The notes under the pieces: model-generated
What the model was told of the DNA's origin: nothing
Database searches by the model: none
What the model saw: only the letters and a program-made list of their open reading frames with translations
Program-made: the position numbers and the translations under genes
Part shown: positions 6,109 through 62,069 of the stretch, piece after piece
Layout of the letters: each line of letters begins with the position of its first letter
How positions within the stretch are numbered: the first letter of the stretch is position 1
Sequence record: OQ689735.1
Reading direction: 5' to 3' (one strand)
DNA length: 64,000 bases
From: Escherichia phage 4E10

Positions 6109-6151
6109 ATCAGTAGTTGATATTGATATAGTACCATAATCAACTACTGAT
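6109..6151. repeat. 13-bp perfect inverted repeat (ATCAGTAGTTGAT / ATCAACTACTGAT), 17-nt loop
   Basis: Read directly from sequence; lies in the 5-prime leader of the 5815..6084 gene. Confidence 0.6.
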
Positions 6152-15447: not shown

Positions 15448-15588
15448 TTACAATTTAGCGGCTTTCCAGAGTTGTTCAATAATCTCTTGGTCTATTTCTT
15501 TAGTTATTTCATTACGTAATAAAGCAGTAAGGGCTTTCGCCCTTTTCTTATTCAACTTTTTGAGTTGACGCTTATTTAAACGAGCCAT
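15448..15588 (-). CDS. small basic hypothetical protein
   Basis: 46-aa ORF below cutoff (MARLNKRQLKKLNKKRAKAL...); ATG overlaps gene 56 stop (TAATG). Confidence 0.4.
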   Translation of the reverse strand: MARLNKRQLKKLNKKRAKALTALLRNEITKEIDQEIIEQLWKAAKL

Positions 15589-16106
15589 TAATAACCTCGG
15601 TCTTGACGAGCGAAATTTTCAGCATTTTTCAAGTAATAAAGTTTAAAGATTTCTTCAGCTGTAAGACCAAGACCCTGGAACATATTCAGAACGAAATGAA
15701 GAATATCAATCATTTCAAATTTAATTTCTAACTGGTCTTGCGGAGACAAATCAGTAATCAGAGTTTCACGACGTTCACCATGCTGCGACTTCCAAGGTTT
15801 CCATACAGCAGATGCGTCTTTTTCACCATTACTCATACCACCAAGAGAAGTCAGAAGTTCACGGAATTCATCATCAATATAATCTTTCTGATTGCGTAGC
15901 CAATCAACAACTTCACCGGCAGTAGCCAAGTCATCAGGATGACGATTATATTCAGGTTTATCTTTAGCTAAACGAATCTGCAGAGATTTCTGCATGTCAA
16001 GCATTACCTGCAGCGGGTCTTTTTCATCACCGAGAATATCCCAGTATTCATTTTGAGCTTTATCAGCGCCTTCGATCAGTTGACTACATTCGTTGAAATG
16101 CGGCAT
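15588..16106 (-). CDS. 56: dCTP pyrophosphatase (MazG-like)
   Basis: 172-aa ORF; matches T4 gp56 in size, position and sequence. Confidence 0.85.
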   Translation of the reverse strand: MPHFNECSQLIEGADKAQNEYWDILGDEKDPLQVMLDMQKSLQIRLAKDKPEYNRHPDDLATAGEVVDWLRNQKDYIDDEFRELLTSLGGMSNGEKDASAVWKPWKSQHGERRETLITDLSPQDQLEIKFEMIDILHFVLNMFQGLGLTAEEIFKLYYLKNAENFARQDRGY

Positions 16107-16179
16107 GTTATTTTTCCTTTCAATTCATGGGTTAGTAGATTAATTATACAATAAATATATAAAGCAATAAGGAGGACAT

Positions 16180-16236
16180 ATGGTACAAAAATTAATGGCA
16201 CTTGTTAATGCCATCAAAAGTAATAAAAACGTATAG
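16180..16236 (+). CDS. plus-strand mini-ORF (18 aa) with strong RBS
   Basis: AAGGAGG 5 nt before ATG; MVQKLMALVNAIKSNKNV. Confidence 0.3.
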   Translation: MVQKLMALVNAIKSNKNV

Positions 16237-16253
16237 CTTTTACTATTTCTGCT

Positions 16254-16379
16254 ATGGTAGGAATTTTACTCTGGAACTTTATTTTATCACCAATTGCAAT
16301 TGCACATGGTGTTAATATTCCAGTAGTTACTCTTGATACATTTGTAGATTTAGCATTTGCTTTAGTTGGGTTAATTTAA
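16254..16379 (+). CDS. plus-strand mini-ORF (41 aa), hydrophobic peptide
   Basis: MVGILLWNFILSPIAIAHGVNIPVVTLDTFVDLAFALVGLI; stop overlaps gene 61 stop convergently. Confidence 0.3.
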   Translation: MVGILLWNFILSPIAIAHGVNIPVVTLDTFVDLAFALVGLI

Positions 16380-17404
16380 ATCTTAGCATATTTAGATAGC
16401 CGCATTTTAGCCATTAACCCCTGGGCAATATTATTTTTCATATATTCCATAATTTGTTCAGGGGTTGCACCTTCCTTTCTAATCATATCATTAACATCTT
16501 TTGATTTCCAGGGAGATTTATCCCAAAACATAACCCTTTCTCCTGCATCAACTAATTTAGTCATTCGCTTGATAGTGTCAGGGTGACGAGGTTCATTATC
16601 TAAAACCCACACTCGTCTATCTTTAAATGGAACAACTTCTAGGTCTAATTGACCACCCGTAATAGCTATACCATTTTCAATGAAAAGGGAATCGATAGGT
16701 CCTTCTAGAACATATACATCGCCATCTTTAACTCGTTCAACTCCATAGATTTTTGTTGCCTCAGGATAAGCTTTAATGGTGATATATTTTTGAGGAGCAT
16801 CTTTCTTTAATGCGCGTCCTTGAAAAGACTCAGCCTTTCCATTAGCATTATAAATTGGAATAACAAGACGAGGCTCAGAAATTTCCTTTTTGTATGTTCC
16901 CGGTGCGATGCTATTAACTAATTTAGGCCATTCGGTTGTAAACCAAAGATATTTCCATTTATCCTTTGGAATACAACGAGCTTTTACATATTTTATAATT
17001 GGATGGTCTTCCGCCAGTTTATCTAATCTAACACATGACGGAAGAGATTTAATTATTTTCTTCTCAGGTTGTTTAGGAAGTTCTTTAGGTTTTTCTACTG
17101 GACGACTTTTACCTTTTTCTTTTCTTATTTCAAAGATATACTCACGATATAAATCAGGTTCAAACTCCTTTAAATATATTCCGATTGGTGCATGATAGTT
17201 ACAGTTATAACAATGAATATTTCCTTCATTATTATCACCATAATACCATCCACGAGCTTTATTCTGGTCGGTTTTTGAATCTCCGCAAACAGGGCATCTA
17301 AACCGCAATTTAAAAGTTGAACTATTATTTACTTGTGTGAATTTAGGTAAATGAGCCAATGCACGATACGCAAACTCATTATCAATCCAAGGTATTGATG
17401 ACAT
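16376..17404 (-). CDS. 61: DNA primase
   Basis: 342-aa ORF; zinc ribbon CPVCGD...CYNC plus TOPRIM region; matches T4 gp61. Confidence 0.9.
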   Translation of the reverse strand: MSSIPWIDNEFAYRALAHLPKFTQVNNSSTFKLRFRCPVCGDSKTDQNKARGWYYGDNNEGNIHCYNCNYHAPIGIYLKEFEPDLYREYIFEIRKEKGKSRPVEKPKELPKQPEKKIIKSLPSCVRLDKLAEDHPIIKYVKARCIPKDKWKYLWFTTEWPKLVNSIAPGTYKKEISEPRLVIPIYNANGKAESFQGRALKKDAPQKYITIKAYPEATKIYGVERVKDGDVYVLEGPIDSLFIENGIAITGGQLDLEVVPFKDRRVWVLDNEPRHPDTIKRMTKLVDAGERVMFWDKSPWKSKDVNDMIRKEGATPEQIMEYMKNNIAQGLMAKMRLSKYAKI

Positions 17405-17406
17405 TT

Positions 17407-17571
17407 TTACTCTTCTTTTTCTTTAGATTCCTCTTTTTTCTTTTTAGGAATCTGTTCAGGACCTTTATTTACTACAGCACCTGACGTTGTTCCAGTAGAG
17501 ATATTTTCAGGACTACTACCTGAATCTCCAGCGACCATATCTTCTTTGATAAATTCTTTATATGTTTTCAT
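17407..17571 (-). CDS. mini-ORF with internal-protein-like N-terminus
   Basis: 54-aa ORF below cutoff; N-terminus MKTYKEFIKED resembles the IP capsid-targeting sequence MKTYQEFIAE; low-complexity tail. Confidence 0.4.
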   Translation of the reverse strand: MKTYKEFIKEDMVAGDSGSSPENISTGTTSGAVVNKGPEQIPKKKKEESKEKEE

Positions 17572-17614
17572 ATTAACCTCTATTCATAAAAGCATTAAAA
17601 ATTTGGTCATCAAT
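17569..17614. repeat. 46-bp direct repeat, copy 1
   Basis: 43/46 identical to 17927..17972; spans the 61.1 stop and next-gene RBS/ATG. Confidence 0.7.
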
Positions 17615-17929
17615 CGATGGAATAGCAACTTTTTCTGCATCATTTAGCAAATCATTAATTTCATCAGATAGCATAACACATGTACCTTTATTTCCTGTAA
17701 TTGTTACTGCACAATTACGAACGTTTTCTTTATTAAATTTTAGGTTAATATTTTCGTAATGAAAATCCTTTAATGCTGAATATATTTTTAAAATAAAATT
17801 GTCTTTTACTACAATAAACCCAACCTCACTATTAAAACATGGTTCATGGAAACTGTAATAAACCTTTTCATCTATAAAATCGTATGAAATTTTTTCCATT
17901 TTTAAATATGAAAATTCAGAACTATACAT
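17573..17929 (-). CDS. hypothetical protein (T4 61.1 position)
   Basis: 118-aa ORF; C-terminal tail SIDDQIFNAFMNRG shared with next gene. Confidence 0.55.
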   Translation of the reverse strand: MYSSEFSYLKMEKISYDFIDEKVYYSFHEPCFNSEVGFIVVKDNFILKIYSALKDFHYENINLKFNKENVRNCAVTITGNKGTCVMLSDEINDLLNDAEKVAIPSIDDQIFNAFMNRG

Positions 17930-17972
17930 ATTAACCTTTATTCATAAAAGCATTAAAAATTTGATCGTCAAT
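17927..17972. repeat. 46-bp direct repeat, copy 2
   Basis: Near-identical to 17569..17614. Confidence 0.7.
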
Positions 17973-18572
17973 AGAAACTTTTACTTTAGGCTGTTCTTCA
18001 AACGGTAATTCATATCCACATATTACAATTTTGTGATCGATACCAAAATACACAGAAGCAATATGATTAATATTATTTTCAGTGAAATCTAAATCAACAT
18101 CAATATCTTTTTGACTAACGCTCAAAGGATAATTAATACGAATAATTCGATTATCTTTAACAAAGATTCCACCGACATACTCTGTGTTGCGTTTAAAGTT
18201 TACACGTTTCCTAAATGAAAAATATTCAGGTTCTTTATGAGCCCGACTCATAGGACATAATGAATAGCTAGAATAAGAGATGTCAAATCCTACACCTTCA
18301 ATATGAACCAACGCGTCATGATTAAACCAATTATAATCATATGCCAAATCCATTATATTGTAATATGTGAAAGGCACCGGATTAACATCATATATTGTAC
18401 CTTTAAAATCTGCCCAGGCAACGATTTCATTATCTTTAACAATTACAAAAATTGTGCCAATAAGATATCCACGGTTATTTTCATCAGGCGTTATATTATA
18501 ACATTGTGCATCAGGAAATTTACCGTATTTAAACGGTGGATTTTTGTGCATATAATAAATCATATTATTCAC
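17931..18572 (-). CDS. hypothetical protein (T4 61.2 position; possible AdfA-like)
   Basis: 213-aa ORF; positional equivalent of T4 61.2. Confidence 0.5.
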   Translation of the reverse strand: MNNMIYYMHKNPPFKYGKFPDAQCYNITPDENNRGYLIGTIFVIVKDNEIVAWADFKGTIYDVNPVPFTYYNIMDLAYDYNWFNHDALVHIEGVGFDISYSSYSLCPMSRAHKEPEYFSFRKRVNFKRNTEYVGGIFVKDNRIIRINYPLSVSQKDIDVDLDFTENNINHIASVYFGIDHKIVICGYELPFEEQPKVKVSIDDQIFNAFMNKG

Positions 18573-18858
18573 CTGTGATTTCGGTTACGATATCTTTGTT
18601 ATCAAAATTAGGGTCACAATACAGAACATAATTATACTGCATTACACCACCAGACTTAAGCTGTTTTTGTACTTCAGCTTTCATTTCAGGACGATCGCGC
18701 TCAACGATATTCATAATATCCGCTTCAATTTGAGTTTCAACTTCAGTCTGATCTGCAGTCATAGACCATTCACATAAATCTTTATCATAACCTGCCATAG
18801 CAGGCTGAGCAGCACAAGAAGCTAAAGCAAAAATTGTAGCAAAGATAAATTTTTTCAT
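18565..18858 (-). CDS. sp: Spackle periplasmic protein
   Basis: 97-aa ORF with signal peptide; matches T4 Sp in size and position. Confidence 0.75.
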   Translation of the reverse strand: MKKFIFATIFALASCAAQPAMAGYDKDLCEWSMTADQTEVETQIEADIMNIVERDRPEMKAEVQKQLKSGGVMQYNYVLYCDPNFDNKDIVTEITGE

Positions 18859-18886
18859 GATAATCTCCTCAGTAGTTTATGTTTAT

Positions 18887-18916
18887 ATAGTATCTCAATT
18901 TCCAACAAAAGTAAAC
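18887..18916 (-). promoter_or_regulatory. T4-type early promoter
   Basis: GTTTAC, 18 bp, TACTAT on minus strand, then GGAG and the sp ATG. Confidence 0.5.
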
Positions 18917-18918
18917 AG

Positions 18919-19176
18919 TTATTTTAAAACTTCTGCGTAATCACATGTTACAAACTGTTTCTCTAACTTGTCGATTTTACGAAAATACCTTTTACACTGA
19001 CGAATCTGTCGCTTCGTAGGACGTACAGCAAACTTAATAAATTCCACTCGACCAAATGGAGGACTTTCTTCTGCTGGAATATCTAGCACCAATTCCCACG
19101 TATCTGCAATAAGTGCTTTGAATTGAGTATTTTTCCTGACGTTATACGGAGTAGGTTTAAATAAAACAATATGCAT
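18919..19176 (-). CDS. hypothetical protein (T4 61.4 position)
   Basis: 85-aa ORF. Confidence 0.5.
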   Translation of the reverse strand: MHIVLFKPTPYNVRKNTQFKALIADTWELVLDIPAEESPPFGRVEFIKFAVRPTKRQIRQCKRYFRKIDKLEKQFVTCDYAEVLK

Positions 19177-19177
19177 A

Positions 19178-19360
19178 TTATCCTCGGCAATCTACTTCAC
19201 ATACTTTCTTGTCATCAATGAAAGCTTTAACTAATGCTTTATTAACTTCAGCATATTGAGTAGTAGCCCATTGAACGTCATCTTTCATCATTGTGATTTC
19301 TTTAGTAAACATACTTTCATTCTTAAACCACCCCATAAAAACTACCTTTACCAATTCCAT
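19178..19360 (-). CDS. dmd: Dmd antitoxin
   Basis: 60-aa ORF; matches T4 Dmd in size, position and sequence. Confidence 0.8.
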   Translation of the reverse strand: MELVKVVFMGWFKNESMFTKEITMMKDDVQWATTQYAEVNKALVKAFIDDKKVCEVDCRG

Positions 19361-19389
19361 AACAATCTCCTCATTTAACCAACAAGACT

Positions 19390-19419
19390 ACTATACCATA
19401 GTCTTGTCAGCTTGTAAAC
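19390..19419 (-). promoter_or_regulatory. T4-type early promoter
   Basis: GTTTAC, 18 bp, TATAGT; ACAAGAC/GTCTTGT inverted repeat brackets the -10. Confidence 0.5.
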
Positions 19420-20846
19420 TAAAATTTTAATTCATTTGCCAAAGCATCTAACTGAGCTCGAGCTGATTCGTTTCTTTGATAGCGATTCTGTTCAGCCTGA
19501 ATCTGTTGTGAACCTGCTACTTCACTCAATTCGGTTGGAGTAGAATCTTGTTCAATTTCTACCCATTTTTGATTTCCTTTTTGAACACCCATCAAAAACT
19601 TATTCCACTTATTCTTATCACCATATCGTGATTTGATTTGCTTAATGAGTTGTTGTTCAGCAGCTGCTAGCTCCTCGGTTTCAATGACCGCAAGCATAAA
19701 ATCAGCTGTTGCTGGAAGACCAGCAGATTCTGCAATATCGCTCATGTTAACATCGGAAGAGTCCCAAGCTTGTTTACCAACCTGTGCTGCAGTCCAAAGA
19801 ACAGTTTCGGTTTCAACAGCCAGAGCACGCAATTCCTCTGCGATAGCTTTAACAGTTGTGTAACTATTTTCTGAATAAACTCGGATGCGACAAGATTTAC
19901 AAATACCCAGATAGTCGACAATAATGATTGTTGGAACAAAATTCTTTTTGAGCTTCAATTCATTCAAGAGAGACCTGAATGTGTTAGCGTCTGCTCCACC
20001 AGTAGGATACTGTTTAACGATTAAACGCCCAAGAGTAGATTTCTCACGCCATTTTTCCATTTTTCCTTTATACTCAGCGTAAGAAATATGTCCATCATCA
20101 ATATCGTCAAGAGAAACATCGAGCATATTAGCGTCAATACGTTTAGCACAGACTTCTTCTGCCATTTCCATGGAGATATAAAGAACATTATGTCCGAGCT
20201 GTAAATAATCTGCCGCTAATGAACACAATCCTAATGACTTACCAACGTTAACGCCAGCCATTAAAACGTTCAGTGTTCCGGTCTCAGCTCCGCCTTTAGT
20301 AATTTTGTTTAGAATTCTGAGTTTAAATGGAACTTTACGAGCTTTATTCATATAAGATAGCCAGCGTGCTTCGTAGTCATCCATCCAATCATGACCAACG
20401 TAGCTATCAAATGAAATTGATAATGCTTGTCGCATGATGTCAGGAATAGCACCTACATCTGGCATTTTCTTATTTCGTTTTTCCGGAGGAAGCTCAGCAT
20501 TAGTTTGAATTTCAATTATTTTAGACGTAGCATTAAACATCGCCCTTTGCTGAACATATTTTTCTGTTTCTTTTACTAACCAGCTGTGGTCTTCTGGAGA
20601 ATCAGCCAGTTTTGAAATAAGTGTTTTTACACCAGAATATTCTGTTTCAGTAAATGAACTATTTTCTAATGCAACATTTAACGCATTAATAGATGGAACG
20701 CTATGGTACTCATTAACATGAGATTTAATTAATTTGAATGTATTTTTAGCTGGACCACTTTCAAAATATTCTGAATCCATATATGGCCAAACTTTTGAAA
20801 AATAAGCTTGATCAAATATAAGATGAGAAAGAATAATTTCTACCAC
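19419..20846 (-). CDS. 41: replicative DNA helicase (DnaB family)
   Basis: 475-aa ORF; Walker A GVNVGKS; matches T4 gp41 length. Confidence 0.9.
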   Translation of the reverse strand: MVEIILSHLIFDQAYFSKVWPYMDSEYFESGPAKNTFKLIKSHVNEYHSVPSINALNVALENSSFTETEYSGVKTLISKLADSPEDHSWLVKETEKYVQQRAMFNATSKIIEIQTNAELPPEKRNKKMPDVGAIPDIMRQALSISFDSYVGHDWMDDYEARWLSYMNKARKVPFKLRILNKITKGGAETGTLNVLMAGVNVGKSLGLCSLAADYLQLGHNVLYISMEMAEEVCAKRIDANMLDVSLDDIDDGHISYAEYKGKMEKWREKSTLGRLIVKQYPTGGADANTFRSLLNELKLKKNFVPTIIIVDYLGICKSCRIRVYSENSYTTVKAIAEELRALAVETETVLWTAAQVGKQAWDSSDVNMSDIAESAGLPATADFMLAVIETEELAAAEQQLIKQIKSRYGDKNKWNKFLMGVQKGNQKWVEIEQDSTPTELSEVAGSQQIQAEQNRYQRNESARAQLDALANELKF

Positions 20847-61586: not shown

Positions 61587-62060
61587 TTATTTGAATGATT
61601 TGACGTACTGAATAGAACCTTTACTATTCACAAAGGCAATTTTACCATTTTTGTTATACATGGTAGCAGTACGCTGATAGCCATAAGTTTGTTTACCAGA
61701 TTGATAACCAACTAATGCAAAATTATCTTCGCCCATTTTATTCTGCTTAGCGCGGATACGTTCATGACCGTGCGCCATAAGAACCTTAGCGTCGCCAGTT
61801 GCAATGGATCTACGAGTTTTTTCATCTTCAACTGTATTAACAAAGTCGTCAAATGAATCAAATTTAGCATGAGATTTATTATACAGTTTTCCATCTACTG
61901 CATAATTATATCCCTGTACATCCATCTCAACTTCTGTACCATCATCCAATACAGCAGTGATTTTTTGACCTTTTTTAAATTTCAAAAGATCAGTAAAAGA
62001 TTCAGCAATAATTTGAGAATTAATAGCTGCTTCAGTAATAAATTCTTGATATGTTTTCAT
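61587..62060 (-). CDS. head internal protein (IP family)
   Basis: 157-aa ORF; N-terminus MKTYQEFITEA is the IP capsid-targeting sequence. Confidence 0.7.
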   Translation of the reverse strand: MKTYQEFITEAAINSQIIAESFTDLLKFKKGQKITAVLDDGTEVEMDVQGYNYAVDGKLYNKSHAKFDSFDDFVNTVEDEKTRRSIATGDAKVLMAHGHERIRAKQNKMGEDNFALVGYQSGKQTYGYQRTATMYNKNGKIAFVNSKGSIQYVKSFK

Positions 62061-62069
62061 ATGTTTCCT

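Follow-up and report, generated by a model that had tools for sequence, protein, structure and literature searches.

The locus described here belongs to a Tequatrovirus (T4-like phage) and is 98.4% identical, across its length, to that of phage vB_EcoM-UFV09. By "the window" we mean the whole stretch of DNA that was analysed, 64 kb in length. All genes at this locus are on the minus strand, and comparison with T4 gives the following features:

17407..17571, minus strand: homolog of T4 61.1, 54 aa, PHROG 1823 (by comparison with the T4 annotation); repeat copy 1 supplies, at its 3' end, the translation-initiation region
17569..17617, minus strand: repeat copy 1, the end of the 118-aa AdfA-like gene plus the ATG of the T4 61.1 homolog (last 14 codons, S to G, 17576-17617; TAA 17573-17575; T spacer 17572; ATG 17569-17571)
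17577-17580, minus strand: Shine-Dalgarno GAGG of copy 1, within the codons AGA GGT
17573..17929, minus strand: 118-aa single-domain AdfA-like paralog, PHROG 4122, without counterpart in T4
17927..17975, minus strand: repeat copy 2, the end of adfA plus the ATG of the 118-aa gene (last 14 codons 17934-17975; TAA 17931-17933; T spacer 17930; ATG 17927-17929)
17935-17938, minus strand: Shine-Dalgarno-like AAGG of copy 2, weaker than that of copy 1, within the codons AAA GGT
17931..18563, minus strand: adfA (T4 gene 61.2), anti-DarT factor A, 210 aa, PHROG 3781 (by Pfam PF23813 and the T4 annotation)
18565..18858, minus strand: sp (spackle), the upstream neighbour, where the adfA cassette indel of relatives has its left boundary

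An earlier note on this DNA had called the gene bracketed by the repeats 61.1. Its gene names are shifted: by comparison with T4, 61.1 is the gene at 17407..17571 and 61.2 that at 17931..18563, so that the bracketed gene is not 61.1, an error that would otherwise propagate. After the sp stop comes TATG, where adfA starts (GGTGAATAATATG), and this ATG at 18563, rather than the GTG at 18572 that opens the longest reading frame, is probably where translation begins; the T4 annotation gives 61.2 a length of about 208 aa. PHROGs places adfA (3781) and the 118-aa gene (4122) in separate families, and the annotation of phage Sf21 describes the latter as 'similar to RB32 gp33'. In the window, gene 61 (16376-17404) comes almost straight after gene 56 (15588-16106), the two separated only by a small plus-strand ORF that is hypothetical in UFV09. 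In T4 (L005, 771-3464), segF lies before gene 56, and dam lies between 56 and 61; dam is absent from the window at 16107-16375.

The two copies of the repeat, 358 nt apart, agree at 45 of 49 nt (92%). The shorter match first noticed, 43 of 46 nt between 17569..17614 and 17927..17972, was right in both position and identity, and can simply be extended to these limits, which are sharp: at an offset of 358, identity is at background level directly outside both. The anatomy proposed for each copy, namely a gene's last codons, its stop, a ribosome-binding site and the next ATG, is also as described, since read in the gene sense each copy consists of the 14 codons for S-I-D-D-Q-I-F-N-A-F-M-N-R/K-G, then TAA, a single T and the next ATG. 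Both proteins do share the C-terminal tail that had been pointed out, ending in SIDDQIFNAFMN(R/K)G.

At a GC content of 34%, and for that reason alone, one might suspect a chance similarity of AT-rich DNA. The probability of this is negligible. No 49-mer match with three or fewer mismatches appeared in any of 100 dinucleotide-preserving shuffles of the window, which rules out a chance repeat and places the identity above that expected of an AT-rich background, the point on which the earlier note had staked its observation. Hundreds of phages, moreover, carry the repeat sequence at the equivalent gene position. Few coding repeats of such quality turn up when all direct repeats of 30 nt or more in the 64-kb window are listed, and this is one of them; the larger repeat families are intergenic and promoter-like.

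AdfA, the product of T4 gene 61.2, is known as anti-DarT factor A (LeRoux et al. 2022, as cited in PMC11257639 and PMC11825919). It binds and neutralises DarT1, and residue 164 (His versus Arg) is decisive for this; T4's own AdfA has shown no phenotype against the DarT1 tested so far (PMC11257639). Together with dmd and tifA (61.4), adfA forms what has been termed an anti-TA island (10.1101/2022.04.14.488369). The Pfam AdfA model PF23813 (gathering cut-off 27 bits) matches the 210-aa protein of the window over its full length (454.9 bits, E=3.8e-137), and this protein also has the two-domain, full-length architecture of about 208-216 aa, which the 118-aa protein, a predicted single domain, does not. 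The 118-aa protein scores 33.5 bits (E=3.6e-8) over model positions 129-211, about half of these bits coming from the tail; in the protein of Dhakavirus C6 the tail alone provides 16.3 bits. At the equivalent of RB69 residue 164, alignment places a His in the AdfA of the window (H167, in NINHIA) and an Asn in the 118-aa paralog (NVRNCA). The position is polymorphic in single-domain relatives, with His in P0005 and L021 (NVLHCA) and Asp in the P0058 group (NVRDCA). Neither paralogs nor a conserved C-terminal peptide are mentioned in the later AdfA literature covered.

The AdfA protein itself varies at its other end. Its first ~65 residues (18370-18563) come in two very different allelic types, a T4 type beginning MLYQMHKCKD and an RB69 type, shared by the window, beginning MIYYMHKNPPF. 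As each of these types is found both with and without the short paralog (L002, L005, L007 and L030), adfA is itself mosaic. In some phages adfA is frameshifted or fragmentary: P0062 encodes 69 aa, of which the first 50 are those of a window-type AdfA and the remainder unrelated sequence, and P0033 and P0055 hold fragments. This suggests pseudogenisation as a further route to the loss of adfA.

The likeness of the two proteins is not limited to the tail. BLASTP aligns the 118-aa protein with AdfA at 38% identity over 106 residues (E=8e-11), with 13 of the 40 identities falling within the tail, and once the tails are removed BLASTP finds no significant match between the two; hhalign of the window's two families without tails gives a weak one. 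A profile HMM built from the short family without its tail, however, gives tail-less AdfAs 10-21 bits, whereas none of 440 shuffled controls exceeds 5.8 bits. The predicted structures agree with this. In the AlphaFold model of the short protein (pLDDT 82.8), strands at residues 8-17, 22-29, 34-42, 45-51 and 56-64 are followed by a helix (67-78), a strand (84-87), a second helix (89-101), a flexible linker (102-105) and a tail helix (106-115). The same order of elements appears twice in the model of AdfA (pLDDT 73.5), which closes with a linker at 191-196 and a tail helix at 198-207. Because the tail-less HMM scores exceed those of the shuffles and the order of elements agrees, we regard the two genes of the window as true paralogs, related along some 100 residues, with the short one corresponding to the C-terminal domain of AdfA. 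From the predicted secondary structure and a weak sequence match we further infer that AdfA may have arisen by internal duplication. A known fold for the family was considered and rejected.

What sets the tail apart is the degree to which it is conserved. We searched 5.8 billion proteins with a profile and, exhaustively with HMMER, 1.84 billion representatives. Both searches, in which the tail itself contributed to the scores, returned only seven clusters at 50% identity, plus fragments, and all AdfA-superfamily clusters came from T-even-type phages. Every full-length member ends DDQIFNAFM(N/K/E)R(G/D/S), bar a few single substitutions. In an alignment of eight sequences from three subfamilies, 12 of the 17 invariant columns lie within the last 14 residues; in one of 42 sequences the invariant residues are G37, Q109, I110, F111, F114 and M115, and the pattern that these form (i, i+1, i+4, i+5) is that of one helix face. 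The codons that encode the tail are free to change: across genera we find GAT or GAC, CAA or CAG, ATT, ATA or ATC, GCT, GCC or GCA, AAT or AAC, and TAA or TGA. Measured on protein-guided alignments, the synonymous divergence of tail and body is 0.174 and 0.168, 0.065 and 0.086, and 0.227 and 0.175 in the three subfamilies, respectively. Amino-acid divergence within subfamilies is far lower in the tail than in the body, although this is partly built in, as the DNA sample was gathered by a pattern that fixes DDQIFNAFMN; the protein searches provide support that is independent of this bias. Scans of IMG/VR and of metagenomes yielded only 13 and 11 loci, respectively. Because synonymous sites in the tail diverge as those of the body do, while its amino acids barely change, these comparisons place the constraint on the peptide, not on the DNA. 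The suggestion that the tail is functional is thus upheld by its superfamily-wide invariance at freely varying synonymous sites, though calling it a 'tag' goes further than this.

In both models pLDDT exceeds 90 in the core, is below 50 in the linker and is 50-59 in the tail helix, the last of which could merely mean that AlphaFold cannot place the tail. Taken at face value, a segment that is at once the most conserved and the least confidently placed is what would be expected of a tethered docking motif. Docking peptides for the T4 sliding clamp, gp45, carry a C-terminal SLDFL(F/Y) motif, as at the C-termini of gp43 and gp55. We rejected this motif as an identity for the tail. The gp43 of the window ends KASLDFLFG, and the C-terminus of gp55 was compared as well; the tail matches neither, in that its invariants Q-I-F-x-x-F-M do not map onto SLDFL(F/Y) and its first residues, S and I, are variable.

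If the peptide is what is conserved, AT-rich background, against which the repeat easily passes, is a less suitable null for the similarity of the two DNA copies than an identical peptide encoded with the codon bias of the genome. The latter predicts about 6.05 nt differences over the 13 residues that are identical. The copies of the window have three synonymous differences, in addition to the R/K codon, which is unremarkable (P(≤3)=0.09). In several two-copy genomes, whose loci are phylogenetically related, the copies differ at only 0-2 synonymous sites (P=0.0005-0.028); there are 0-1 such differences in L030, PinkRuby, L021, Sf21 and slur08 (P(0)=0.0005, P(≤1)=0.005). Selection on the peptide alone does not explain the genomes with 0-1 differences.

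This raises the alternative that the DNA identity is owed mainly to recent gene conversion or unequal crossing-over, that is, to concerted evolution, with conservation of the peptide secondary. Besides the excess identity just described, set against the six or so differences expected, the distribution of tail haplotypes speaks for such exchange: the haplotype GAC GAT is that of adfA in the window and that of the short gene in L021 and Sf21, the modal haplotype is the same in the adfA of T4 and the short gene of ES12, and which 3' end a repeat copy has goes with the gene that follows it. As the main cause, however, exchange seems improbable to us. The peptide is invariant where synonymous sites are saturated (Dhakavirus L016 and T4 differ by 6 nt), and it is equally invariant in single-copy genomes of other genera, where there is no partner copy to convert it. 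Tail synonymous divergence equals that of the body within subfamilies, and the window's own three differences lie within expectation. Since tail synonymous sites are otherwise unconstrained, and both 0-2 differences and shared haplotypes are nevertheless seen, the sequences are suggestive of occasional exchange between copies.

Relatives in other genera raise a different question, namely whether the tail is a portable 3' module (peptide plus ribosome-binding site) that has been grafted onto unrelated bodies, making the 'superfamily' partly an artefact. In Dhakavirus C6 a protein of 122-146 aa has a very different body, with no detectable DNA similarity to that of T4, and yet a tail only 2 nt from that of T4, followed by the TATG of a TifA homolog. 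Stripped of their tails, the common Dhakavirus-type proteins score 0.4-4.6 bits, no better than the shuffle maximum of 5.8, and their sole match to the Pfam AdfA model is in the last 14 residues. The AGAGGTTAATATG module also persists where there is no AdfA gene at all. Set against this, hhalign of tail-less Dhakavirus-type sequences with the C-terminal domain of AdfA gives P=7e-4 over 80 columns, and a Foldseek search with the model of the short protein returns a Dhakavirus (VR25) protein as the second-best viral match (E=1.2e-4). All types share the hairpin motif G-x-(I/F)-x-V-x-D-(N/D)-x-I, and the window's own two genes have significant body homology without the tail. We thus consider grafting unlikely as a general account. 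The structural comparisons suggest that Dhakavirus-type proteins and AdfA share a fold; for the Dhakavirus subfamily itself, a grafted-tail origin is possible.

The TifA homolog in C6 (L006, MW679410.1, 2282-2503, minus strand) is an unannotated protein of 73 aa, 35% identical to T4 61.4 (E=4e-12). Its gene comes immediately after the AdfA-like one of this Dhakavirus, so that genera differ in how the cassettes of the anti-toxin island are ordered. In Mosigvirus SF the AdfA tail is followed by the AATG of a 65-aa gene, and the 61.1 sequence forms the C-terminal third of a 155-aa protein. The 61.1 gene of the window has a likeness of its own: its 5' end (17541-17573, MKTYKEFIKEDMVAGD...) is identical at 29 of 33 nt to 62030-62062 (MKTYQEFITEAAIN...), the 5' end of a 157-aa ORF (61587-62060) classed as 'internal virion protein' (PHROG 3155, DUF7412). 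The resemblance of the gp61.1 N-terminus to the capsid-targeting leader that T-even internal proteins share (PMC3012670) raises the possibility that gp61.1 is packaged.

The last part of the repeat, AGA GGT TAA T ATG (AGAGGTTAATATG), in which GAGG sits five bases ahead of the ATG, has a distribution of its own. It precedes the next gene at every cassette boundary, even where there is no upstream AdfA-family gene: AGAGG(T/C)TAATATG follows the sp stop in ES12, which has no adfA, and in G3F10, which has neither gene. Among the window and 40 further loci, which are related by descent, the last two codons before 61.1 are AGA GGT in 24 of 25 cases, whichever body precedes them. Before the short gene, in 13 likewise related two-copy loci, they are AAA GGT in ten, AGA GAT in three and AGA GGT in none. 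The 3' end of the repeat thus travels with the downstream gene, since AGA GGT precedes 61.1 and never the short gene in two-copy loci, a pattern that fits crossovers inside the tail, tuning of the Shine-Dalgarno sequence, or both.

Could the repeat then be a cis-acting nucleic-acid element, whether a recombination site, a promoter, an RNA structure or a signal for translational coupling? Its last 13 nt do serve as a Shine-Dalgarno-stop-start module at every cassette boundary, and the two distinct single-base weakenings of the Shine-Dalgarno sequence before the short gene (AAAGGT and AGAGAT) suggest tuning of expression. Junction RNAs fold no better than shuffles, though (z = -0.13, +0.11 and -0.54), the tails contain no promoter-like site on the coding strand, and there is no terminator in 17300-19500; RNA element, promoter and terminator are ruled out by these z-scores near zero and empty scans. 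Synonymous sites in the 12 upstream codons evolve at the rate of the body. At most the last ~13 nt qualify, not the repeat of 46-49 nt, and as an account of the whole we regard a cis element as very improbable. The genes look like one polycistronic unit. A 67-nt repeat family is present at 18869-18935 and at 6110, 25091, 39365, 50009, 51451 and 55207 (61-85% identity to the reference copy), with early-promoter features of the GTTTAC...TATA type on the minus strand. Its copy at 18869-18935 lies between 61.4 and sp, just upstream of the string sp-adfA-short-61.1-61, and from its sequence may be the promoter of that string.

Between sp and 61.1, relatives display four architectures, all of them common:

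Architecture A, both genes: the window, UFV09, PinkRuby and others
Architecture B, adfA only: T4 and Pu-Krd-SF4
Architecture C, short gene only: ES12
Architecture D, neither gene: G3F10

In the phage collection, the body of the short gene occurs in 294 records and that of adfA in 469, at least 125 records having both. The claim that the repeats flank exactly one gene agrees with the coordinates of the 118-aa gene, and the natural variants that this would predict, lacking the bracketed gene and retaining a single repeat copy, exist in T4, Pu-Krd-SF4, L011 and L020. In pairwise alignments, architectures A and B differ by one clean indel of 358 bp, with its edges inside the repeat and flanks 96-99% identical. 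This holds for pairs of matching adfA type, the two-copy L030 and PinkRuby against T4, Pu-Krd-SF4, L011 and L020, and likewise for L030 and L007 against T4, L002, L011 and L020. The junction in T4 is the exact product expected of a crossover between the repeat copies of an L030-like locus. Architectures C and D (ES12 and G3F10) differ by the same 358-bp unit, here with edges in the 14-nt TAGAGG(T/C)TAATATG. Between A and C, and between B and D, the difference is an adfA unit of 615 bp that extends from the sp stop as far as the point where ...ATGAA meets TAGAGG. For this larger unit we rejected a simple microhomology deletion: there is no simple microhomology at its edges, and the junction so predicted is TGAATAGAGG, as against the TGAATAATTAGAGG observed. 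Both indels keep all reading frames and initiation regions intact, and both are unpolarised, loss and gain being indistinguishable.

It had been proposed that recombination between the repeats would delete or duplicate the gene between them. Loss or gain of the 358-bp unit is what we observe; tandem duplication is not seen among the best junction matches, as the ten best records for such a junction gave two-piece matches spanning 372-404 nt and no contiguous match of 219 nt. The body of the short gene was found at 296 places in its 294 records, and the double matches in two of these could be terminal redundancy of the assemblies or real duplication. Comparison of genomes thus lends support to the recombination idea, and the mechanism seems plausible because T4 deletes and amplifies segments here via much shorter homologies (10.1101/2022.04.14.488369). 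The indel variants could also have spread by ordinary homologous exchange in the flanking genes, and not by repeated intramolecular events.

Our reading of these results is that the repeats are very probably the 3' ends of tandem AdfA-superfamily paralogs, alike mainly through purifying selection on a shared C-terminal peptide. The earlier note had the causality reversed: the tail is not shared because of a DNA repeat; rather, the repeat arises from the need, in both paralogs, to encode one and the same peptide and to provide the same ribosome-binding module for the next gene. The locus lies in the 'anti-toxin island' of a T4-like phage and pairs a full-length adfA (T4 61.2) with a half-size, single-domain relative, and strong purifying selection on DDQIFNAFM(N/K)RG, combined with AT-biased codon usage, mainly accounts for the near-identity. 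In the predicted structures, a flexible linker joins the folded domain to a short helix, one side of which would be made hydrophobic by the invariant residues Q-I-F-x-x-F-M. AGA GGT, the stop and the next ATG double as the ribosome-binding module of the following gene. As a by-product, the resulting 36-49 nt of identity would be a substrate through which recombination-proficient T-even phages gain or lose the short gene as an exact unit, and occasional crossover or conversion within the tail may keep the copies more alike than saturation would allow.

The tail may serve to dock onto some conserved partner, for which a conserved site on DarT-type toxins is the most plausible candidate, with specificity set by the variable body. 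More tentatively, the whole family might be modular, with a constant tethered helix that docks DarT-type toxins or some other partner and fast-evolving, cassette-swapped bodies, in one or two copies, that pick the variant; we would put this below an even chance. Were it true, two toxin variants would be covered by any phage that has adfA together with the short paralog. The ~290 sequenced T-even phages with an uncharacterised single-domain paralog may extend the anti-DarT repertoire. That the most conserved part of the family is, on the models, a 12-residue tethered C-terminal helix also gives a handle on how AdfA neutralises DarT1. Furthermore, because the cassettes of the island are bounded by the same Shine-Dalgarno-stop-start module, phages can mix and match the genes between these boundaries and leave expression unbroken.

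Several known systems invite comparison. In the T4 dmd-tifA locus, segments are amplified or deleted via microhomologies of 6-10 bp (Srikant et al., eLife 2022; 10.1101/2022.04.14.488369). The island is the same one, comprising dmd, tifA/61.4 and adfA/61.2, and in both cases short direct repeats remove or multiply the genes between them; those were laboratory events at 6-10 bp, whereas here we see 36-49 nt of coding homology and standing natural variation, in the form of loss or gain and no amplification. PeSLs are boundary sequences in hyperplastic regions that flank variable, non-essential genes (2010, PMC2839356; Comeau et al. 2014, PMC4122927). Like the present repeat, they are short conserved sequences at gene boundaries tied to the insertion, deletion and replacement of the genes they flank. 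PeSLs, however, are non-coding and combine a promoter (sigma-70-like, early) with a stem-loop terminator, while our repeat is coding sequence plus a ribosome-binding site and contains neither.

The capsid-targeting sequence (CTS) of T-even internal proteins (PMC3012670) offers an analogy only, that of diverse anti-defence proteins with a short common terminal peptide. The CTS is N-terminal, is cleaved and targets the prohead core, whereas the AdfA tail lies at the C-terminus, and the two are not similar in sequence. The closest relation is to the AdfA family itself, of which the 210-aa gene is the ortholog, with the His that the literature links to DarT1 neutralisation; the 118-aa protein is above the gathering threshold of the family, but with the C-terminal domain and tail only, and with Asn at the residue-164 equivalent. 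The locus is thus a pair of tandem paralogs within a known anti-defence family, and what is new is the tethered C-terminal helix common to the AdfA superfamily.
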